A stretch of DNA of 64,000 bases from the NCBI GenBank assembly GCA_948444865.1, contig CAOJVE010000001.1:1372-65371 (forward strand), read 5' to 3'. The position numbers and the translations under genes are program-made. Positions 5,554 through 25,897 of the stretch are shown here, piece after piece (position 1 is the stretch's first letter; each line of letters starts with the position of its first letter). The stretch comes from an uncultured Lachnospiraceae bacterium. Lineage in GTDB: Bacteria > Bacillota > Clostridia > Lachnospirales > Lachnospiraceae. The notes under the pieces are model-generated. The model ran no database searches and had not been told where the DNA came from. It saw only the letters and a program-made list of their open reading frames with translations.

Positions 5554-6909
5554 TCATGGGCGTTCTGCGCGGCCGCTTTTCCAGTAATAGACCGCCATGC
5601 ACAGAGCCGCCATTCCCCAGGTGACGGGATAGGTAACGGCGATTCCACGGATGTCATGCCACTGGCCCATAAGGACAAACAAAAGTATGGTCCGCAGAAT
5701 ACACATATTGGATAAAATGATTACCATCGGCGGTACGGCTTTCCCTGCGCCCCGCGCCGCGTCCGCCAGCGTTTCCAGGATTACATAGAACCAGTAAAAC
5801 GGGAATGTGATCCGAATGATTTTCATGCCGGCGGCAATGACCGCCGCGTCTTTGGTGAACAAGCCGAACGCCTGGGGGCCGAAAAGCAGCAGAATAATGG
5901 CCGTGGCCACATTCAGGAAAATCCCCATCAGGATACAGCTTTTCACGCCCTGGCGCACCCGTCTGGGCTTTTTCGCTCCGGCATTTTGCCCGGCAAAGGT
6001 GGTCATGGCCTGGCCCAGCGCGATGATCGGGTGGTACAGCAAAAGCTCAATCCGAAAATACGTGGTAAAGGCGCCGATGGCGTCCACCCCCAGACTGTTG
6101 ATGTGATACTGGGCGAACATGTTGGAAAGGGTGATCACCAGATTCTGCACGCCCGCCGGAATCCCGATTTTCACAATTCTAAAAAGAATATCCCTCTGGA
6201 TGCAGATGTTTTTTAAAATAAGCTGGCAATCCCCGCCCCGCTTCATCAGATACCAGAGGCACAAGCCCGCCGCCAGCGTCTGGGAGGCCATGGAAGCCCA
6301 GGCCGCGCTTTCCACCCGCGGGAAATTGCGGATCAATACCGCGTCGGCAATCACGTTGGCGATGCCGCCGGCCAGCTGGGTCAGCATGGGGACGCTGGAA
6401 TTTCCCATGGCGCGGATGATGCCGGAAGCCATGTTGTATGTAATCACCGAGGTCAGGCTCAAAAAATAAATCCGCAGATAGGATGCCGCTTCTCCCAGAA
6501 TACTCACGTCCACGCCCATCAGCCGCAGGAAAAACGGCGCGCCCAGCCAGCCTGCCGCCATCAAGAAAAGTCCGCCCGCCAGGCTTAAGCCTATTGCCGT
6601 GTGGACTCCCGCCTGGGCCGCCTTTTTGTCCCGGCAGCCCACCGCCTGGGAAATCACCACGCCGGCCCCCACCGACATGCCGGTGAAAAATCCCACCATG
6701 CAGTTGATAATCAGAGAGCTTGCGCCCACCGCCGCGTAGGAATTTTTGCTCAGGCAATTTCCCACAAACAGCAGGTCCACCGTATTGTAAAGCTGCTGAA
6801 TCAGGCTGGAGCCCAGAAGCGGCAGCGAAAACAACAAAAGCTGCTTCCAGATCGCGCCTTCCGTCAGATCATAGCCGTTTTTATTTTTTGCCGTCTGCGC
6901 GCGCGTCAT
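5554..6909 (-). CDS. MATE-family efflux transporter
   Basis: LTEGAIWKQLLLFSLPLL, QQLYNTVD and GQNAGAK motifs with about 12 hydrophobic segments. It overlaps the upstream gene by ATGA. Confidence 0.92.
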   Translation of the reverse strand: MTRAQTAKNKNGYDLTEGAIWKQLLLFSLPLLGSSLIQQLYNTVDLLFVGNCLSKNSYAAVGASSLIINCMVGFFTGMSVGAGVVISQAVGCRDKKAAQAGVHTAIGLSLAGGLFLMAAGWLGAPFFLRLMGVDVSILGEAASYLRIYFLSLTSVITYNMASGIIRAMGNSSVPMLTQLAGGIANVIADAVLIRNFPRVESAAWASMASQTLAAGLCLWYLMKRGGDCQLILKNICIQRDILFRIVKIGIPAGVQNLVITLSNMFAQYHINSLGVDAIGAFTTYFRIELLLYHPIIALGQAMTTFAGQNAGAKKPRRVRQGVKSCILMGIFLNVATAIILLLFGPQAFGLFTKDAAVIAAGMKIIRITFPFYWFYVILETLADAARGAGKAVPPMVIILSNMCILRTILLFVLMGQWHDIRGIAVTYPVTWGMAALCMAVYYWKSGRAERP

Positions 6910-8144
6910 TCTCGTCTGCGCTCCTGCGCCTCCTCGCGGGTGTACGCCTCCGTCAGCGCTTTTAATTTCTCAAAGCTTGCCTTTTCGTCGTACGCCTTCA
7001 TCACTGAGCACAAATCTTCGTAATTATAGGCATTTACATAAACGCCCGTAGCCAGCGCATATTGTTCGTTGAACTCTTCTTTGCTTTTGGAAATCCAGAA
7101 TCCCTGGGTCATCTGAAACGCCCGGCCGTCTTCGCGGAATTCTTCCCCATATCCGGTGACGGCGTTGTACATGGCCGCGAACGCCGGGCCGATGGTGGAG
7201 CTGAATTTGCCCGCCACGTAGCACAGAGTTCCGTCGGCGAAAAGCTCTTTGTTGGTCATGCTGTAACAGTCAATCACGCCCTGCTTGATCCCTTCCTTGC
7301 GGAATGCGTCCACGATGTTGTACATGGAAAACATGGAAAGGGCGTAGTCATAGGAATTGTTTTCCAGCTCTTCGATGGCTTTTTTCTCCACGTTCTCCCG
7401 GGTGGTGTAGCCGGGGAAAACCGTCAGCTTCACGTCTCCCAGGGACAATTTAACCGGCTCTTCTGTCAAGGCCAGCGCTTCCACGTCCTGCCCCAGATCG
7501 CCGAATTCTTTTTCAAACACATTCAAAGCACCCACGGAACGGGCGTGGTGCATCTCATTTCCGATGCTGGCGCCTCCGGTGAACAGGATGTAGGATTTCC
7601 CCTGTTTCTCGTGGATAAAATATTCCGCCATTTCCGCGCCGGCCTCGTGCTCAATCTCGTTGCCGGGGCCGATGACGCCCAGGAAATAGGGATCGTCCGC
7701 CACAGATTCGTAGTCTTCCTCGGTCACGCTGCCGGAAGCCAGCACGTAATAAACCCCCTGGGATTTACAGTATTTTACCTCCTCCGGCAAATCGTAAGTA
7801 ATAAAGGACAAAATGCCTTCCACGCCTTCCGCGCAGGCGTCTTCCAGGAACTTCATCTCGTCTTCTTTGCTGCGAATGGCGTAGGAATAGTGAAACTTTA
7901 CTTCTGGAAAACATTTTTCTATATAACTGGTCAGATATTCCCGAAAAGCAATCACTTCGTCGTCTAACACATCGTAAACGGCCACGCCGATTTTGTGATT
8001 CTGTTTATGGGCCTCTTCGCCGCTCTCTTCCGTCTTTGAATCCGGCGCGCTTTTGGAAGCGTCGGACTTTGACGGGGAGCTGCCGCAGCCGCCCATGCCC
8101 AATAACAGCATAGCCGCCATCAGGATGAATGCCAACCTTCTCAC
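6906..8144 (-). CDS. Lipoprotein, probable class I (sugar-type) periplasmic-binding-protein fold
   Basis: Signal peptide with lipobox MGGC and a Ser-rich linker, followed by KIGVAVYD and an alternating beta/alpha pattern. No cognate permease is adjacent. Confidence 0.55.
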   Translation of the reverse strand: MRRLAFILMAAMLLLGMGGCGSSPSKSDASKSAPDSKTEESGEEAHKQNHKIGVAVYDVLDDEVIAFREYLTSYIEKCFPEVKFHYSYAIRSKEDEMKFLEDACAEGVEGILSFITYDLPEEVKYCKSQGVYYVLASGSVTEEDYESVADDPYFLGVIGPGNEIEHEAGAEMAEYFIHEKQGKSYILFTGGASIGNEMHHARSVGALNVFEKEFGDLGQDVEALALTEEPVKLSLGDVKLTVFPGYTTRENVEKKAIEELENNSYDYALSMFSMYNIVDAFRKEGIKQGVIDCYSMTNKELFADGTLCYVAGKFSSTIGPAFAAMYNAVTGYGEEFREDGRAFQMTQGFWISKSKEEFNEQYALATGVYVNAYNYEDLCSVMKAYDEKASFEKLKALTEAYTREEAQERRRE

Positions 8145-8147
8145 TGT

Positions 8148-9119
8148 TTAGTCTCCCTTCTTTCCAAAAATATGACAGGCCACCTCATGGCCCGGCTCCA
8201 TCTGGGCCAAAAGCGGGCGTTTTTGTCTGCAGATTTCCGTACAGTGTCCGCAGCGATCCTGGAAAGGACAGCCGTCCGGCACGTCCAGAGGGCTTGGCGC
8301 CTCGCTTTCGATGCTGGCGATTTTCTTGGAAAAATCCATATGAATGTCAAAGATGGCTCCCATCAGCGCCTTGGTGTAGGGATGCATGGCGCGGGCATTC
8401 AGATCCTCGGCGGGAATCACTTCCACGATGTTTCCCAAATACATCACCGCGATCTGATGGGCGAAGGACTGGATCAGTCCCAGGTCATGGGCGATAAAGC
8501 CGATGGCGATGTTCTTTTCTTTTTGCAGCTTCACCACAAGCTTGATGATGGTCTTCTGCACCGACACGTCCAGGGCGCAGGTGGCCTCATCCATCACCAC
8601 GATCTCCGGCTCCAGCACAATGGCGCGGGCGATGGCGATTCTCTGCCGCTGGCCGCCGCTCATATTGTGGGGATACCGGTTGGCGAAATCCGCCGGCAAA
8701 TCCACCAGTTCCAGATATTTTTTTGCCACCGCGTCTTTTTCGCTCTTTTTGATTCTGCCGAAATTCATCAGCGGCTCGCAGATAATGTCACGAATCTTCA
8801 TTTTCGGATTAAAAGAACCGGACGGATCCTGGAAAACCATCTGAATTTTCTGACGATTTTGCCGCAGGGTTTCCCCCTTCATCTTCGTAATGTCTTTTCC
8901 GTGAAAGAAAATCTCCCCTTCGGTGGGCGCGTCCAGAGAAACCAGAAAGCGCATAAACGTGCTTTTTCCGCAGCCGGATTCCCCCACCAGACCCAGGGTC
9001 TTGCCCTTGTATAATTTCAGATTGACATCGTTGCAGGCCACCAGGGTTCGGTTATTGGAGGCGGGGAATCTGCGCGTCACATGTTTTGCCTCCAAGATCA
9101 TGTCTTTTTCATCAAACAT
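8148..9119 (-). CDS. Peptide/nickel ABC transporter ATP-binding subunit (OppF/DppF-like)
   Basis: GESGCGKST, MSGGQRQR, VMDE and a C-terminal CPFQDRCGHCTEIC extension. The start is placed behind a GGAGGT RBS. Confidence 0.92.
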   Translation of the reverse strand: MFDEKDMILEAKHVTRRFPASNNRTLVACNDVNLKLYKGKTLGLVGESGCGKSTFMRFLVSLDAPTEGEIFFHGKDITKMKGETLRQNRQKIQMVFQDPSGSFNPKMKIRDIICEPLMNFGRIKKSEKDAVAKKYLELVDLPADFANRYPHNMSGGQRQRIAIARAIVLEPEIVVMDEATCALDVSVQKTIIKLVVKLQKEKNIAIGFIAHDLGLIQSFAHQIAVMYLGNIVEVIPAEDLNARAMHPYTKALMGAIFDIHMDFSKKIASIESEAPSPLDVPDGCPFQDRCGHCTEICRQKRPLLAQMEPGHEVACHIFGKKGD

Positions 9120-9894
9120 AGCGTACACCTCCCAGGGACGGCACCGCGTCCAGCAGATTTCTCGTATAGTCGCTTTGGGAATGGTTAAGGATCTGTTCCC
9201 GGTCGCCCGCGTCCACGATTTTCCCGTTTTTCATCACGATAATGGCGTCCGCCATATAGGCGGCCACGCCCAGGTTGTGGGTCACCACGATGATGCTGGT
9301 CCGGTACTCGTCCCGAAGCTCCATCATCTGGCGGACAATCTGCGCCTGGGTGGTCACGTCCAGGGCGCTGGTGGGCTCGTCGGCCAGCAAAAGCTTGGGC
9401 TGAAAGGTCATGGCCATGGCAATGCCCACCCTCTGGCGCATGCCGCCGGAGAGCTGAAACGGGTAGCTTTTCATAATATTGTCGCCGCTTGGCAGGCGCA
9501 TCCGCTCCAGCATCTGAATCCCCATGTCCCAGGCATCCTTTTTCGTCATATTCTTATGGGTGCGGATGTATTCGACGAACTGGTTTCCGATGATCCGGGT
9601 CTGGTTGGTCATGGCCCCGGAGTCCTGGAAAATCATGGAAATATCCGTGCCCCTAAGCTTCCTCCACTGTTCTTTCGTATTGGACAAAAGGGATTTTCCC
9701 TCGAAGAGAATGTCCCCTTTCGTCACTTTGCCGCCGCCGGCCAAAAGCCCCAAAACCGCGCGGATGACGGTGGTTTTGCCGCTTCCGCTCTCGCCCACGA
9801 TACTGCAGATTTTCCCCTGCTTAAGAGAGAGGCTGAAGTCTTTGACCGTTGGGCGTTCTTTATAAGATATGGTCACATCTTTGATTTCCAACAT
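9112..9894 (-). CDS. Peptide/nickel ABC transporter ATP-binding subunit (OppD/NikD-like)
   Basis: GESGSGKTT, LSGGMRQR and LADEPTSALD. Confidence 0.92.
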   Translation of the reverse strand: MLEIKDVTISYKERPTVKDFSLSLKQGKICSIVGESGSGKTTVIRAVLGLLAGGGKVTKGDILFEGKSLLSNTKEQWRKLRGTDISMIFQDSGAMTNQTRIIGNQFVEYIRTHKNMTKKDAWDMGIQMLERMRLPSGDNIMKSYPFQLSGGMRQRVGIAMAMTFQPKLLLADEPTSALDVTTQAQIVRQMMELRDEYRTSIIVVTHNLGVAAYMADAIIVMKNGKIVDAGDREQILNHSQSDYTRNLLDAVPSLGGVRYV

Positions 9895-9909
9895 ATCCGT
9901 TTTCCTCCT

Positions 9910-10731
9910 CTATTCATCTCTGGGGTCCAGAACGTCCCGCAGGCTGTCGCCGAACAGGTTGAAGACCACTACCACAAGAAAGATGGCAAGCCCCGGGAAA
10001 ATCATCAGCCAGGGAGCCGCCGCCATATAGGCGCGGCCTTCGTTGAGCATTAGCCCCCACTCCGGTGTGGGAGCCTGGGCGCCAAATCCCAAGAAAGACA
10101 GTCCCGCCAGCTCCAGCATCATGCCGCCGATATCCGTGGCCCCTGTAATTACCAGCGTGGGCAGCGCGTTGGGCAGCATATATTTCATCAGTATATACGG
10201 CGTTTTCGAGCCGGTAACCACCGCCGCCGCCACGTAATCCCGGTGTCGGATTTTCAAAACCAGGCTTCGCGCCAGCCGGGCGTACTTGGTCCAGCTCACC
10301 ATGGAAACCGCCAGAACCGCGTTCTGGATGCTGGCCCCTAAGATGCCCGCAATGGCGATGGCCAGAACCATGCCCGGAAAGGAGATCATCATATCGGAAA
10401 AACGCATGATTACCGCGTCCGCGATGCCGCCGAAATATCCGGCCAGAATCCCCAGAACCGTCCCGACGGTGAAAATAATTGCCACCACGCTTAAGGCCGC
10501 CGTCAGAGAAGTCCGGGTTCCATAGATGACCCGCGCGAAAATATCCCTTCCCATTTTATCGGTTCCAAACCAGTGCTCGCCGCTTGGTTTTTGCAGGGCA
10601 TTGGCCAAAATTCCTTCTGTTGGGTCCTGTCCTCCGGTCAAAAAGGGAGCAAAGACTGCAACCAGCACGACCAACAGAACCAAAAAGCAAAAAAACAAAA
10701 AAGATTTATTTTTTTTCATAAAATTGTTCAT
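9910..10731 (-). CDS. Peptide/nickel ABC permease (OppC/NikC-like)
   Basis: HWFGTDKMGRDIFARVIYG, an EAA-like loop and LSFLGFGAQAPTPEWG. Confidence 0.92.
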   Translation of the reverse strand: MNNFMKKNKSFLFFCFLVLLVVLVAVFAPFLTGGQDPTEGILANALQKPSGEHWFGTDKMGRDIFARVIYGTRTSLTAALSVVAIIFTVGTVLGILAGYFGGIADAVIMRFSDMMISFPGMVLAIAIAGILGASIQNAVLAVSMVSWTKYARLARSLVLKIRHRDYVAAAVVTGSKTPYILMKYMLPNALPTLVITGATDIGGMMLELAGLSFLGFGAQAPTPEWGLMLNEGRAYMAAAPWLMIFPGLAIFLVVVVFNLFGDSLRDVLDPRDE

Positions 10732-10738
10732 CGCCCGA

Positions 10739-11677
10739 TCACCTCTTCTCTCTCATTCTGGGATCTACAAAGTTATAAGAAATATCCACTATCAGGTTAA
10801 TCACCATATAAATCAGGGCGATCCACAGCACATAGCCCTGAATCAGCGGATAGTCGTAGGACGTAATCGCCGATACCGCCAGGCTTCCCAGTCCCGGATA
10901 AGAGAAAATCACTTCCACCACCGCCGTGCCGCCCAGCAGATTTCCCATGGACAGCCCCAGCATGGTGATCAGTGGAAGCAGGGAATTGGGAAATACGTTC
11001 AGCCATAAAATTTTCCATTCCTTCACCCCCCGCGCCCTTGCGCCTGTTACATAATCCTGGCTTAACTCTTCCAGCACCGCCGTACGAACCTGCCGGGTGT
11101 ATTTGGCAGACATCGCAAAGGCCAGAGTGACAGCCGGAAGAATCATGCTCTTAAAAGTTATGTCCGTAGAAACTACCTGAAGCCATTTCAGTTTTACACA
11201 GAAAAAGGAAATCAGCAAAAGCCCTACCCAGAAATTGGGAACCGATACGCCCAGAAAAGTAAATCCACGAACCAGATTATCGATCCATTTGTTTTTGTTG
11301 ACCGCCGCCAGCATTCCGAAGGGAACGGCCACCAGCAGCATCAAAATCATGGAAAACAGCGACAGCTTCAATGTAGGCCAAAGCCTGGAACCCAGAAGGT
11401 CCAACACCGGCTTTTTCAGGGAGTAGGAATTGCCGAAATCCCCTCTCAGACAACTGGTCAGCCAGTCTGCGTACTGCACCAGGAATGGACGGTTCAGCCC
11501 CATCTCTTCCCTGGTCTGCTGCATCACTTCTTCGCTGGGCACAATGCCCGATGCCGCATACATGGTGCGCACCGGATCGCCGGGCGCCAGATACGTCAAT
11601 AGAAAGGTCAAAAAACTGATGCCGATGAGCACGATGACAATCTGCCCCAGCCTTTTTCCCAACTGTTTTTTTGACAA
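10739..11677 (-). CDS. Peptide/nickel ABC permease (OppB/NikB-like)
   Basis: APGDP, GDFGNS, YVTGARARG and VEVIFSYPGLG. TTG start at 11677 behind a GGAGGAGG RBS. Confidence 0.92.
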   Translation of the reverse strand: MSKKQLGKRLGQIVIVLIGISFLTFLLTYLAPGDPVRTMYAASGIVPSEEVMQQTREEMGLNRPFLVQYADWLTSCLRGDFGNSYSLKKPVLDLLGSRLWPTLKLSLFSMILMLLVAVPFGMLAAVNKNKWIDNLVRGFTFLGVSVPNFWVGLLLISFFCVKLKWLQVVSTDITFKSMILPAVTLAFAMSAKYTRQVRTAVLEELSQDYVTGARARGVKEWKILWLNVFPNSLLPLITMLGLSMGNLLGGTAVVEVIFSYPGLGSLAVSAITSYDYPLIQGYVLWIALIYMVINLIVDISYNFVDPRMREKR

Positions 11678-11750
11678 TTCCTTCCTCCTCCTCTCTATGC
11701 GGGCATACGTCCGGGGGCGGGTCCCCCGCACGCAGCTTTATCTATCCTTT

Positions 11751-13442
11751 TTATTTCGGCGCGATCTCTGTGGACAGCCAGTAGTAGTCTACAGTGTGAA
11801 TGTCGGCGCCGGTTACTTTTGAAGCATTGGAAAGGAATGAACTGTTGTAGTAGCCGTGTACCAATACCGCGCAGTCGTCGATCAGGATCTGCTCCATCTT
11901 GATAACCAGGTCGGCGCGCTCATCCAGATCGGTGGAAGCCATGTACTGGTCATACAGTTTGTCGTACTCGTCGTTCTCGTACCAGCAGTAGTTGGTTCCC
12001 TGGCTGTTCACATAGAATTCGCTTCCTTTGTCGCCGCCGTACCAGTTCTTTAAGAACGCGCTTGGCTCGCCAGTTCCCACGGTCGTCCAGTTGGAGTCGC
12101 ACAGGTCGTACTCGCCTGCCTGCATCATGTTCCACTCGGTGTCGGAGTCTGTGTTTGTCACGTTCACGTCGATGCCGATCTCAGCAAGAGAAATCTGAAT
12201 GGCCTCCGCGAAATCGCTTAAGCATCTGTTTGTGTATGTAATATACTGTAAAGTAATCTTTTCGCCGTCCAGCTCGCGGAATCCGTCGCCGTCGCTGTCT
12301 TTGATGCCCGCGTCGTCCAGCAGTTTTTTCGCGCCTTCCACATCATACTCGAAATCATTTTTCAGTGATTCATAGTCATAGGAAAGGGTGGAGGGCAGTA
12401 CGGCCGGGCCGTAGGTGTACATGCCGCCTACCGTTACGTCGCACAAAGTCTGTCCGTCCACGGCTTTGAAGATGGCCTGTCTTAAGGCTTCGTTTTTGCC
12501 CAGGATGCCGTTGAAGTTCACATAGGCGAAACCGCTTCTCATACCGGGCGTTTTGGATACGTAGAAATTGTCGTCGCCCGACAGTTCTTCCAGATCGCTG
12601 GCGGTTGTGATGTTCTCGGTCAGATCAATGTCGCCGGTTTTTAAAGCGCTGGCCTTGGTGCTGTCATCTTCGATGAAGATTACGGAAATGCTGTCATAGG
12701 GAACTTCCCCGTTCCAGTAGTTTTCGTTTTTCACCAGCTCGGAGCATTTGGTGGTTTCGTCCATGGATTTGATCACATAGGGGCCGGTGCCAATGACGGA
12801 TGTGCTGTCCGCAGTGTAATCATGCTCTGCGTCTGACGTGTCGCCTTCCACGTCGATGATGGCGTAGAATGGGAAGCACAGGATGGATGTGATGTCCGCA
12901 TAGGGCTGTTTGGTCACGATAGTCACGGTGTTGGCGTCCGCGTCCGCAACAATGGAGTCCATTTCCAGATAAGTTTCCGGCGTGGAGCTTTTCTTGTCCG
13001 TTGCGCAGACCGTGTAGAGCCGGTTCAGGGAGTCCGCCACGGCCTGGGCGTTGCAGTCGTTGCCATTGGAGAACTTCACGCCGTCGCGGATATGGAACGT
13101 CCAGGTCTTATTGTCGTCGGACACTTCGTATTTATCGCAAATATTATAATCTACAGTCAGGTCGTCTTTGAATTTAAACAGGCACTCAACAATCCCATGG
13201 CGGGTGCCGTCCCAGGCTGCGTTCTGGTATTCCGCCGGGTCATAGGACGTGGAATATACGTAGCACCCAAAGTTCAGATGCTTGCCGCCTTCGTCCGCCG
13301 CTGCCTCTGTGGCGCTGCCGGACCCGCTGTCCGAACTGGCCTTAGAGTCCGCGCCTTCGCCTCCGCACCCGGTGAGCATTCCCATGGTCAGCGCGCCTGT
13401 CAAACCAAATGCCAGCATTTTCTTCAGTAAACTTCTTCTCAT
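11751..13442 (-). CDS. ABC substrate-binding lipoprotein, family 5 (peptide/nickel/metallophore type)
   Basis: Lipobox LTGC, WTFHIRDGVKFSNG and GTGPY. ATG at 13442 behind GGAGG. Confidence 0.88.
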   Translation of the reverse strand: MRRSLLKKMLAFGLTGALTMGMLTGCGGEGADSKASSDSGSGSATEAAADEGGKHLNFGCYVYSTSYDPAEYQNAAWDGTRHGIVECLFKFKDDLTVDYNICDKYEVSDDNKTWTFHIRDGVKFSNGNDCNAQAVADSLNRLYTVCATDKKSSTPETYLEMDSIVADADANTVTIVTKQPYADITSILCFPFYAIIDVEGDTSDAEHDYTADSTSVIGTGPYVIKSMDETTKCSELVKNENYWNGEVPYDSISVIFIEDDSTKASALKTGDIDLTENITTASDLEELSGDDNFYVSKTPGMRSGFAYVNFNGILGKNEALRQAIFKAVDGQTLCDVTVGGMYTYGPAVLPSTLSYDYESLKNDFEYDVEGAKKLLDDAGIKDSDGDGFRELDGEKITLQYITYTNRCLSDFAEAIQISLAEIGIDVNVTNTDSDTEWNMMQAGEYDLCDSNWTTVGTGEPSAFLKNWYGGDKGSEFYVNSQGTNYCWYENDEYDKLYDQYMASTDLDERADLVIKMEQILIDDCAVLVHGYYNSSFLSNASKVTGADIHTVDYYWLSTEIAPK

Positions 13443-13506
13443 TTTATTTTCCTCCACTTTTTGTGATATTTTTCGCCCATAAGATTCAAAAAGAATCCCC
13501 CACAAC

Positions 13507-13536
13507 AAAAAAGACCAACTGCTTTTACAGTTGATC
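13507..13536 (-). terminator. Intrinsic terminator in the leader of the ABC operon (riboswitch expression platform)
   Basis: Minus strand GATCAACTG-TAAAAG-CAGTTGGTC-TTTTTT, about 65 nt upstream of the SBP start. Confidence 0.7.
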
Positions 13537-13765
13537 TTCACTCTCAAACTAACGATACCTTAATAAAATATACAGAAACATTGGGCCTGCTACATCCTGA
13601 AAAAAACAAACGCTAAAAGCTTCAAAAAGAGAATTTCTGGAAAAACCCTTCTGACACGCTTCATTTACCCTCGATGGCTCACCGATCCGTCTTCTTCTCC
13701 GCTGTACCTAAACCCGGTATGCACTAGCATGAACTCTCTTATCAACCGTAAGATGATTCACCAAA

Positions 13766-13920
13766 GCTATAAGCAGTTCTCCTGACTTAAGGTCATCACT
13801 CGCTGCGCCTTCCCAAAATATACATTTCAGTGACATAGTGCAGTCCGCTCGCTATCACAGTGACGGGATCGTATCAGATTTTAACCGATTTTTCTATTAA
13901 TCCATGTTGGAACTTATAGC
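13766..13920 (-). ncRNA. Cobalamin (B12) riboswitch
   Basis: The minus strand carries TAATAGAAAA-TCGGTTAAAATCTG, CCCGTCACTGTGA, GTCACTG, GGGAAGG and AAGTCAGGAGAACTG in the canonical order, closed by P1 GCTATAAG/CTTATAGC. Confidence 0.88.
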
Positions 13921-13963
13921 CCGCATATATAAATGCTACCAATCTTATGAACTTTTCCTTTAT

Positions 13964-13992
13964 ATTATACTCCCGCTTTTTTTGAATGTCAA
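13964..13992 (-). promoter_or_regulatory. Consensus SigA promoter driving the B12-riboswitch operon
   Basis: Exact TTGACA-17 nt-TATAAT just upstream of the aptamer. Confidence 0.85.
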
Positions 13993-24175: not shown

Positions 24176-25897
24176 TTAGAACAAACTGTAAAGCTGGGTG
24201 AGCGGAAGCGTCTCGGCCGGCTTGGATACCAGCTTCACGCCGTCCGCCGTCACCGCGTAAGTCTCCGGGTCCACCTGGATGTCCGGCAGCGCGTCGTTAT
24301 ATTTCATGTGGCGTTTTCCGATGTTCCTGCAATTTTTCACCGGAACCACCGTTTTTTGCAGACCATATTTTTCTTTTACGCCGTTTTCATAGGCCGCTTT
24401 GGAGACAAAAGTGAGGCAGCTCTCATTTTTCGCCATTCCATGAGCTGCGAACATGGGCTGGTACAACACCGGCTGGGTGGTGGGGATGGACGCGTTGGCG
24501 TCTCCCATCTTGGAGGCGATGATCATGCCGCCTTTTATGATCATATCCGGCTTGGCGCCGAAAAAGGCCGGGTCCCACAAGACCAGATCCGCGAATTTTC
24601 CCACTTCCACAGAGCCCACGTAGTCCGCGATCCCGTTGGTGATGGCCGGGTTGATGGTGTATTTGGCCACATAGCGTTTTGCCCGGAAATTGTCGTTGCC
24701 GTTTCCCTCGTCCTCCGGCAGAGGCCCTCTCTCCAGTCTCATCTTATGGGCCGTCTGCCAGGTGCGGGTGATCACCTCGCCGGGCCTTCCCATGGCCTGG
24801 GAATCGGAGCTCATCATGGAGAACACGCCCATATCGTGGAGCACGTCCTCCGCCGCGATGGTCTCCGGGCGGATCCTGGAATCGGCAAACGCGATGTCCT
24901 CCGGGATGTTTTTGTCCAGATGATGGCAGACCATCAGCATGTCCAGGTGTTCGTCCAGAGTGTTCACCGTAAAGGGCATGGTGGGATTGGTGGAGGAGGG
25001 CAGTACGTTCTTCGCCCCCGCCGCCCGGATGATGTCCGGCGCATGGCCGCCTCCGGCTCCTTCCGTGTGAAATGTATGGATGGTCCGCCCGCCGATGGCG
25101 TCCAGCGTGTCTTCCACGCATCCCGCCTCGTTTAAGGTATCGGTATGTATGGCCACTTGTACGTCGTATTCATCGGCCACGTTCAGGCAGTGATGGATGG
25201 CCGCCGGGGTGGAACCGAAGTCTTCGTGGATCTTCATGCCCATGGCGCCCGCCTCGATCTGTTCCGCCAGGGGCTTTTCGTCGGAGCAATTTCCTTTTCC
25301 CATAAATCCCAGATTCATCGGATACTCCTCCGCCGCTTTTAACATCATACGGATGTTCCAGGGGCCCGGCGTGCAGGTGGTGGCGTTGGTGCCGTCCGCC
25401 GGGCCTGTGCCTCCCCCGATCATGGTAGTCACGCCGGAATACAGAGAACAGGGGATCTGCTGGGGCGCGATGAAATGGATGTGGCTGTCGATGCCGCCCG
25501 CGGTGACGATCAGCCCTTCCCCGGCCAGCGCTTCCGTGGACGCTCCGATCGTCATCCCAGGCGTCACTCCGTCCATGATACCGGGGTTCCCGGCTTTTCC
25601 GATCCCGACGATCTTGCCGTCCTTGATCCCGATGTCCGCCTTCACGATCCCCGTGTAGTCCAGGATCAGCGCGTTGGTGATCACCAGATCCAAGTCTCCG
25701 TCTTTGCTGCAGGTCTTCACTGATTGGCCCATGCCGTCACGGATGGTCTTTCCGCCGCCGAATTTTACCTCGTCTCCGTAGATTGTGTAATCTTTTTCCA
25801 CTTCGATGATCAGATCTGTGTCCGCCAAACGTACCTTGTCTCCCACTGTAGGACCGTACATGGCCGCGTATTTTTCACCAGATATTTTATAACTCAT
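24176..25897 (-). CDS. ureC: Urease alpha subunit
   Basis: Ni-ligand motifs [28 protein letters not shown] and SSDSQAMGR. Confidence 0.99.

Follow-up and report, generated by a model that had tools for sequence, protein, structure and literature searches.

Organisation of the locus

The window considered here is a 64,000-nucleotide stretch of DNA from an uncultured Lachnospiraceae bacterium (GenBank assembly GCA_948444865.1, contig CAOJVE010000001.1). Its minus strand carries an operon of seven co-oriented genes behind a predicted cobalamin (B12) riboswitch, encoding an ATP-binding cassette (ABC) importer of the Nik/Opp2 type, a lipoprotein of an unnamed family and a MATE family transporter, which we discuss as a candidate system for the uptake of cobalt. 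The genes are tightly packed, with spacings ranging from an overlap of 17 nucleotides (nt) to a gap of about 20 nt. The initial annotation, made from the sequence alone, had proposed a promoter and a cobalamin riboswitch ahead of seven closely packed genes, and all of these were recovered, each gene on the minus strand and at the position first assigned to it.

A sigma-70-type promoter, TTGACA-17-TATAAT, lies at 13964..13992 on the minus strand and, read directly, agrees with the consensus at 12 of 12 positions. It is the sole perfect site in the region, where the total number of promoter-like sites is not above that in shuffled sequences. Some 30 nt downstream is the riboswitch aptamer (13755..13932, minus strand), which matches the Rfam model RF00174 over its full length (model positions 1-189) at 96.8 bits (E 7e-23; gathering score 31.5); comparison with this model was the check that had been suggested for the aptamer at the outset. 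The B12-box region, AGUCAGGAGAACUGC, shows no variation across the aligned orthologous leaders (n=8). About 215 nt past the aptamer, ahead of the start of the first gene, is a putative intrinsic terminator (13500..13539, minus strand) with a stem of 13 bp followed by UUUUUUGUUGUGG, the hairpin and its U-run, at 13510..13539, having a folding energy of -19 kcal/mol (z = -4.08). The location of this hairpin between aptamer and first gene indicates a transcription-terminating switch, and the leader is predicted to be a cobalamin riboswitch with an OFF platform of the terminator type. Three runs labelled RNA-Seq cover the region only as flat-depth assembled contigs, one of 14.1 kb in each run, and are uninformative on expression or co-transcription.

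Judged by its domain content, the product of the first five genes is a Nik/Opp2-type ABC importer, all five components of which have Pfam matches. The family-5 substrate-binding lipoprotein (11751..13442, minus strand), which has a NikA-like fold, matches SBP_bac_5 with an E-value of 1e-78 and begins, from a start at 13442, with the lipoprotein signal MRRSLLKK...LTGC, in which LTGC is the lipobox. It is followed by a permease of the NikB/Opp2B type (10739..11731, minus strand), which contains BPD_transp_1 with its N-terminal domain and whose real start is probably downstream of the GTG, and by one of the NikC/Opp2C type (9910..10731, minus strand; BPD_transp_1 and OppC_N). These permeases pass the NCBIfam equivalog models for Opp2B (NF045470; 403 bits, cut-off 350) and Opp2C (NF045474; 329.5 bits, cut-off 300), both of which are named 'nickel ABC transporter permease'; the TIGR models for NikB (316.8 against 447 bits) and NikC (301.6 against 358 bits) were not reached. 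The first ATPase, NikD/OppD-like (9112..9894, minus strand; ABC_tran), has OppD, CntF and NikD as its top NCBIfam matches, each under the cut-off. The second, NikE/OppF-like (8148..9128, minus strand), combines ABC_tran with a C-terminal oligo_HPY domain, and its gene overlaps that of the first by 17 nt. The set is not of the BtuFCD kind, its receptor belonging to SBP_bac_5 rather than Peripla_BP_2 and its permeases to BPD_transp_1 rather than FecCD. The proposal of an Opp/Nik-type uptake system under B12 control is thus borne out by the riboswitch, the SBP_bac_5 receptor, the permeases that pass as Opp2B and Opp2C and the pair of ATPases.

The last two genes have no counterpart in the five-component importer. 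One encodes the unnamed lipoprotein of 412 aa (6906..8144, minus strand). The other encodes the MATE transporter (5554..6909, minus strand), which has two MatE domains and scores 199.8 bits against a cut-off of 147.4 with TIGR00797; no NCBIfam equivalog model for a named substrate was reached. The start of the MATE gene overlaps the stop of the lipoprotein gene by 4 nt, an arrangement by which the two would be translationally coupled.

Conservation of the block

In a scan of one genome per species, 72 loci with the lipoprotein gene were found. Conservation of the block, namely the riboswitch, the five ABC genes and the lipoprotein, extends to approximately 60 species, mostly Lachnospiraceae. 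Where the contig permits, the gene order is SBP5-permB-permC-atpD-atpF-lipoprotein, SBP5 being the family-5 receptor, and from the second ATPase gene to the lipoprotein gene the spacing lies for the most part between -4 and +30 nt; three deep-branching loci have the SBP5 gene 3' of the lipoprotein gene. Fourteen loci were scanned with Rfam, and the aptamer was present in all eight that had sufficient upstream DNA. With a covariance model built from the aptamers of these loci, the wider search placed an aptamer before the block in 37 of the 37 loci in which SBP5 precedes the lipoprotein and enough upstream DNA is available. Where the aptamer is more than 1 kb upstream, four loci have a LysR gene in the intervening DNA, L023 has a P1B ATPase gene there and L039 an AstE-MATE pair, the riboswitch of L039 directly preceding AstE-MATE-SBP5. 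The full ABC block is missing around the lipoprotein gene in four loci: in L040, L042 and L050 this gene lies beside a LysR gene with no ABC gene at all, and in L027 it is accompanied by two ATPase genes only. Since riboswitch, ABC genes and lipoprotein recur together in dozens of species, their arrangement exceeds what chance would produce.

Association with the B12 pathway

Carriers of the operon are almost all de novo producers of B12. CbiD, a marker of the anaerobic B12 pathway, was found in 49 of 50 carrier genomes, as against 84 (56%) of the 151 genera sampled across the family. It was found in 78 of 143 non-carriers of that family, which gives an odds ratio of 41 (Fisher p 7e-10, shared ancestry being ignored). 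The lipoprotein occurred in 8 of the 151 sampled genera, and only 4 of the matches are close homologues. Lipoprotein homologues in two CbiD-negative genomes (G056 and G156) were considered as exceptions to this association and rejected, being distant paralogues in riboswitch-free sugar-transport operons.

Other systems for cobalt and corrinoids are present in the same genomes. The window genome has a BtuF-FecCD-ATPase-CbiZ set elsewhere. Two cultured carriers, Hominiventricola filiformis (G027) and isolate Marseille-Q4145 (G030), have CbiD and lack CbiM; their other riboswitch-controlled sets are a cbi operon and a BtuFCD set with an exported CbiK-like lipoprotein, to which G027 adds an energy-coupling factor (ECF) set with a DUF4430 lipoprotein. 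To argue by elimination that the operon must supply cobalt in these two organisms would be weak, because many non-carrier producers are also without CbiM: the protein is missing from 41 of the 84 B12-producing genera sampled in the family. A related argument, that the operon and CbiMNQO have complementary distributions, was rejected, since CbiM is found at similar frequency in carriers and in other producers (p 0.37).

The orphan lipoprotein

The lipoprotein has no match in Pfam or NCBIfam, and a profile search of the sequences in the Protein Data Bank (PDB) returned zero relatives. In a collection of 5.8 billion proteins it has 338 close homologues, all unnamed or 'hypothetical' and originating from metagenome-assembled genomes of Lachnospiraceae and Eubacterium-like bacteria; a profile search of 1.84 billion representatives gave 684 matches at E<=1e-3 and 119 at E<=1e-30. 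The family is named in none of Pfam, NCBIfam, the PDB or the literature found.

Its fold was approached by structure prediction. An AlphaFold2 (AF2) model built from 48 sequences, with a predicted local distance difference test score (pLDDT) of 86 and a predicted template modelling score (pTM) of 0.82, shows alternating strands and helices in two Rossmann-like lobes. Foldseek returned 368 PDB matches at E<=0.001, the best of which are sugar binders with target-normalised template modelling (TM) scores of 0.72-0.79; the neighbours include arabinose-, galactofuranose-, glucose/galactose- and ribose-binding proteins together with LacI-type domains, at 10-16% identity. On this model the protein has the class-I, sugar-type fold of periplasmic binding proteins (PBPs), which is unlike the family-5 fold. 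Compared with binding proteins of the CUT2 type it possesses an additional helical segment of about 70 residues at the C-terminus. Eleven residues are invariant (Y57, F114, E165, M198, H199, R202, D292, N298, K313, Q347 and W350) and four more nearly so (D61, S113, N196 and S316). In the model the conserved residues appear to sit at C-terminal strand ends, which would correspond to the ligand-cleft site of the fold.

Within the same bacterial family, the farthest relatives found for the lipoprotein (25-32% identity, HHalign probability 100%) serve as ordinary receptors for sugar ABC transporters of the CUT2 type, adjoined by genes for two BPD_transp_2 permeases, a double ATPase, GH3 and GH78 glycosidases and an AraC regulator, in operons that lack a riboswitch. 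One such paralogue, at G156:C15:20312-21475 in a genome without CbiD, has an in-frame TAA and is probably a pseudogene. No BPD_transp_2 permease gene is present in the window operon, and the lipoprotein has no Peripla_BP match. The initial annotation had suspected a second lipoprotein of different fold with no permease of its own, and the class-I model and the gene content of the operon agree with this. Taken together with the CUT2 receptors amongst its paralogues, the fold suggests a sugar-type receptor which has lost its own transporter and been adopted by a Nik-type operon.

The MATE pump and other recurrent partners

Partners were counted over the 6 kb that follow the lipoprotein gene, in the 51 loci where sufficient DNA was available. 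The most frequent is a heavy-metal P1B ATPase (29 of 51), its gene often beginning 3-30 nt past the lipoprotein gene, followed by the MATE gene (22 of 51) and a zinc hydrolase of the AstE/AspA family (20 of 51). Riboswitch, ABC genes and lipoprotein thus form the conserved block, and the MATE gene is a recurrent partner of it. A functional link between MATE pump and importer had been proposed, and this finds support in the diversity of the genes concerned. Among the linked MATE genes at least five groups can be told apart, with less than 55% identity between them, and the place of the gene varies: it may come after the lipoprotein gene, the ATPase or the hydrolase, or ahead of the receptor. 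This points to repeated recruitment and not to inherited synteny. With at least 12 MATE genes in the 2.7-Mb window genome, the expectation of chance adjacency is a few percent.

The linked P1B ATPase contains E1-E2_ATPase and HMA domains and a CPC motif, has a long His-rich N-terminus in some members and passes the 'cadmium family' IB2 model. In the closest relative (L003:10251-13331) it has an N-terminus of approximately 200 residues consisting of HxH/HDH repeats, and two HMA domains in addition. The window genome has an orthologue (62% identity) on a separate short contig, C140. Further repeated neighbours of the block are genes for LysR, an ArsR/SmtB metalloregulator, a CDF cation-efflux protein, the cobaltochelatase CbiK and a class-I methyltransferase, as well as BtuF/FecCD genes behind a second riboswitch, which adjoin the operons of L033, L048 and L072.

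A paralogous Nik-like operon without riboswitch or class-I lipoprotein is found on contig C52 of the window genome (4070-14283, minus strand). Its order is permB-permC, a gene for an exported protein of 481 aa, atpD-atpF-SBP5, then a 560-aa AstE/AspA::SAM-methyltransferase fusion and then LysR. As the fusion and LysR accompany this operon also, the combination of importer, hydrolase and LysR has the appearance of a general module.

Receptor, substrate and proposed mechanism

The family-5 receptor is closest in fold to NikA. Its AF2 model (pLDDT 82.7) has the NikA proteins of S. aureus, B. suis, B. halodurans and E. coli as best structural matches, with TM scores of 0.69-0.78 to those of S. aureus, B. 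suis and E. coli at about 22% identity; structures of CntA, SapA and HbpA are also among the matches. The best NCBIfam matches of the sequence are Opp5A_nikA and nickel_nikA, both under the cut-off. Across 47 orthologues 85 residues are invariant, a set which is rich in aromatic residues and arginine and contains no histidine. The lack of an invariant histidine is more in keeping with an organic ligand or a fully chelated metal than with direct metal binding.

The interpretation that we favour, with moderate confidence, is that the operon mediates B12-repressed uptake of cobalt, probably as an organic chelate, with the lipoprotein serving as a second extracellular receptor. Cobalt is preferred because the permeases are of the nickel type, the receptor fold is best matched by NikA, the operon is restricted to B12 producers and the neighbouring genes handle metals. 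The initial annotation had left the choice between a cobamide and a cobalt metallophore. The distribution of CbiD and the metal-efflux and CbiK neighbours favour cobalt, probably chelated, and the BtuFCD or ECF systems already present in the carriers checked speak against a cobamide.

The mechanism envisaged begins at the leader. When adenosylcobalamin or another cobalamin is plentiful it would bind the aptamer, allowing the 13-bp terminator to form and switching the operon off; when B12 is scarce, transcription would read through into the seven genes. The Nik/Opp2-type importer would then supply de novo B12 synthesis with cobalt, the metal probably arriving as a small organic chelate and not as the bare ion. 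The lipoprotein may capture the ligand, or free chelator, outside the cell and hand it over to the family-5 receptor; direct docking of the lipoprotein to Nik-type permeases seems unlikely for a protein of the CUT2 type. Export of the chelator could be the task of the MATE pump. In other species the AstE/AspA-type hydrolase might free the metal inside the cell, the LysR regulator might tune expression and the Cd/Zn-type P1B ATPase might expel surplus or mis-imported metals such as zinc and cadmium. Confidence in these steps falls in the order cobalt supply, organic complex, second receptor, MATE export, release by the hydrolase and removal by the P1B ATPase.

A number of observations weigh against cobalt as the substrate or against particular steps. 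The receptor fails the NikA equivalog cut-offs (Opp5A_nikA 216 against 600 bits; nickel_nikA 170 against 393 bits), and the ligand residues of E. coli NikA are not kept, R137 being replaced by Phe and H416 by Ser, on which ground identification of the receptor as NikA was rejected. Family-5 receptors can also bind tetrapyrroles, and NikA binds heme (PMC2667541). The window genome already possesses a riboswitch-controlled CbiMNQO-CbiK system, and CbiM is no rarer in carriers (29 of 50) than in other B12 producers (approximately 38 of 78). The relatives of the lipoprotein bind sugars, which is not an obvious fit with a metal chelate, and the P1B ATPase linked to the operon belongs to the Zn/Cd type and not to the known cobalt-exporting type. 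No experimental study of any member was found in the literature. Finally, no chelator synthase is visible. PF03059 (nicotianamine synthase (NAS)/CntL) was absent from eight carrier genomes in a search whose positive control matched; the search of carrier genomes for PF10100 (opine dehydrogenase) likewise gave no match, its control being equally silent; and no CntL- or CntM-type gene occurs in the window or in the 72 loci. Opine synthesis of the Cnt kind was rejected on the absence of NAS from these eight genomes, and the parallel with the Cnt system which had been drawn for this operon does not extend to such a pathway.

A more ambitious proposal is that operon and partners together constitute a full B12-gated cobalt-metallophore cycle of a kind not yet described, which we regard as doubtful. 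Under this proposal the MATE pump would secrete a small chelator, possibly sugar-like or acyl-amino-acid-like and made by unlinked genes. On the cell surface the lipoprotein would capture the chelator or its complex with cobalt and deliver it to the NikA-like receptor, the ABC importer then internalising the complex, after which the AstE/AspA-type hydrolase would break the chelator and so free cobalt for CbiK, whilst the co-transcribed Cd/Zn-type P1B ATPase would expel wrong metals entering alongside.

Alternative substrates

One alternative, which we think unlikely, is that the operon imports a corrinoid or a precursor of the tetrapyrrole type (cobinamide, cobyric acid or another cobamide) in place of cobalt, the family-5 receptor binding the large ring and the lipoprotein recognising the nucleotide loop or trapping the corrinoid at the surface. 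B12 riboswitch control would then be a feature in common with BtuFCD, and a receptor with many invariant aromatic residues, no conserved histidine and none of the metal-chelate residues of NikA would suit such a ligand, the more so as the heme-binding capacity of family-5 proteins (PMC2667541) is accompanied by SapA and HbpA among the fold matches. The descent of the lipoprotein from sugar binders is in keeping with this, as are the supply of cobalt by CbiMNQO in the window genome and the position of three operons beside a second riboswitch with BtuF/FecCD genes. The distribution of the operon tells against it, because a salvage importer should not be restricted to producers and would be expected at least as commonly in non-producers, yet CbiD accompanies it in all carriers but one. 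Besides, one or two canonical corrinoid importers are already present in the carriers checked, the permeases are of the nickel type by their scores, and the typical neighbours are metal-efflux genes and CbiK, not genes for corrinoid remodelling. A further alternative is the import of an organic nutrient, peptide-like or an N-acyl amino acid, to be cleaved by the AstE/AspA-type hydrolase, the metal genes forming an unrelated island; the compound would be one needed when B12-dependent metabolism fails, for example a source of methionine with MetH idle. Pairs of receptor and amidase are known for murein peptides (MppA/MpaA), the hydrolase is linked to the block in 20 of 51 loci, the riboswitch-free paralogous operon of the same genome has its own AstE::methyltransferase fusion and LysR, and the receptor scores below the NikA cut-offs. 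But a bypass of B12 shortage would not be expected to be confined to B12 producers, the P1B ATPase is often co-transcribed, with gaps of 3-30 nt, the permeases pass nickel-type cut-offs and NikA proteins are the best fold matches of the receptor, for which reasons the nutrient hypothesis is given a low probability.

It is similarly improbable that the operon is concerned with another metal, nickel or zinc, imported as a chelate because demand for it rises at low B12 (zinc for B12-independent enzymes, for instance), or with several metals at once in the manner of Cnt. Cnt and Nik systems are promiscuous, the permeases conform to nickel-permease models, the linked exporter is of the Zn/Cd type and urease genes are found 7-13 kb away in the window; a clostridial homologue of NikZ, moreover, binds Ni, Co and Cu (bioRxiv 10.1101/820670). 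What separates cobalt from these metals is the regulation and the company that the operon keeps: control is by B12, not by NikR or Zur, in 37 of 37 evaluable loci, the tight association is with the B12 pathway, and the proximity to urease is not conserved among related loci. The specific suggestion that the importer supplies nickel to the nearby urease was rejected on these last grounds, the neighbourhood not being conserved and control being by B12.

Comparison with known systems

The core of the operon has precedents. As reported by Zhang et al. 2009 (PMC2667541) from Rodionov 2006, the NikABCDE family has members in C. tetani and D. hafniense with a B12 riboswitch ahead of them, and Table 2 of the same paper lists two cobalt-assigned NikABCDE systems in Clostridia. 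In that account these operons resemble the one described here in joining a cobalamin riboswitch to a five-component importer of the peptide/nickel family in B12-producing Firmicutes, and in both cases the assignment to cobalt is by genomic context. Relative to the prediction as it is given there, the orphan class-I lipoprotein is a constant sixth gene in the present operon, and MATE, AstE/AspA, P1B ATPase and LysR genes recur around it; neither C. tetani nor D. hafniense is among the 72 lipoprotein loci. The term 'non-canonical', applied in the initial annotation, is therefore an overstatement, cobalt operons of the NikABCDE family with B12 riboswitches having been predicted since 2006. The core was already known as a prediction, and what is new is the constant orphan lipoprotein together with the recurrent exporter and hydrolase partners. 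In Clostridium carboxidivorans a NikZ homologue binds Ni, Co and Cu aided by histidine, and its operon has two receptors and a cobalamin riboswitch past its terminator (10.1101/820670).

With NikABCDE of E. coli and NikA (Opp5A) with Opp2BCDF of S. aureus, which take up nickel as Ni-(L-His)2, the operon shares the five-part architecture, permeases that pass as Opp2B/Opp2C and the NikA fold of the receptor. In those systems the substrate is a metal-chelate complex and not the free ion, as would be the case here. By contrast, the receptor of the present system is only about 22% identical to NikA, scores under the NikA cut-offs and is without R137 and H416, control is by B12 instead of NikR, and there is an additional lipoprotein and a MATE pump. 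The staphylopine (Cnt, Opp1) system of S. aureus likewise unites a family-5 receptor, an ABC importer and an exporter in one locus, and it imports metallophore-metal complexes, including those of cobalt, a role for which the present operon may provide a counterpart. Differences are that CntKLM-type synthesis genes are lacking here, that a B12 riboswitch takes the place of Zur or Fur and that the exporter is a MATE protein, CntE being an MFS protein. CbtJKL of Sinorhizobium meliloti, reportedly described by Cheng and colleagues in 2011, is said to be an experimentally supported cobalt ABC importer under a B12 riboswitch, and to that extent similar. It belongs to another ABC class, its receptor being FecB/BtuF-like and its permease FecCD-like, and is not known to have a second receptor or an exporter. 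The lipoprotein, for its part, resembles CUT2 sugar-binding proteins such as RbsB, the glucose/galactose-binding protein (GGBP) and the arabinose- and galactofuranose-binding proteins in its two-lobed class-I fold, and differs from them in having no CUT2 permease or ATPase of its own and in residing in a Nik-type operon under a B12 riboswitch.

Further observations in the window and in related genomes

Several other loci came to light in the course of the analysis. In the window, positions 25447-25744 (plus strand) match the Rfam family 5_ureB_sRNA with 125.9 bits, opposite an open reading frame of 573 aa (24176..25897) that is presumed to be a urease gene; the match probably reflects conservation of the urease coding sequence and not an antisense RNA of the Helicobacter type. 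Elsewhere in the window genome, a cobalamin riboswitch on contig C10 (10215-12274, minus strand; 97.6 bits) precedes genes for a Cys-rich 'zf-like' protein of 92 aa (PF04071), a 198-aa lipoprotein without a Pfam match and a 170-aa repeat protein, which may be small surface proteins that bind corrinoids or metals. A fourth cobalamin riboswitch, on contig C92 (6240-6423, plus strand; 53.5 bits), is followed at a distance of about 600 nt by rplU-ysxB-rpmA-obg, and no B12-related gene is evident downstream.

In the two cultured carriers, G030 and G027, the riboswitch-controlled BtuFCD operon (L104 and L106) opens with an exported lipoprotein of 418 aa containing a full CbiK cobaltochelatase domain, followed by a weakly NEAT-like protein; it is unusual for a corrinoid uptake operon to encode an extracellular CbiK-like protein. 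In the same genomes a cobalamin riboswitch precedes genes for five large secreted proteins (L105 and L109), one of them of 1052 aa with Cadherin-like, PQQ_2-like and dockerin domains, and these proteins may serve in the capture of corrinoids at the cell surface.

Implications

Cobalt supply limits the production of B12 by gut bacteria, and CbiM is absent from about half of the B12-producing genera sampled in the family. Should the operon function as proposed, it would constitute a second, chelate-based route for cobalt in Lachnospiraceae and would provide a function for an unannotated lipoprotein family with approximately 700 representatives at 50% identity. A binding protein which has left its own transporter to serve another could then be studied as a test case, and a relay between two differently folded receptors on one ABC importer would be new. 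The links to a MATE pump and to a hydrolase of the acyl-amino-acid type are handles by which a cobalt chelator might be found, if one exists. With a constant orphan receptor, and an exporter and a hydrolase repeatedly recruited to its side, the operon makes the idea of chelate-mediated uptake of cobalt by gut Clostridia amenable to testing.

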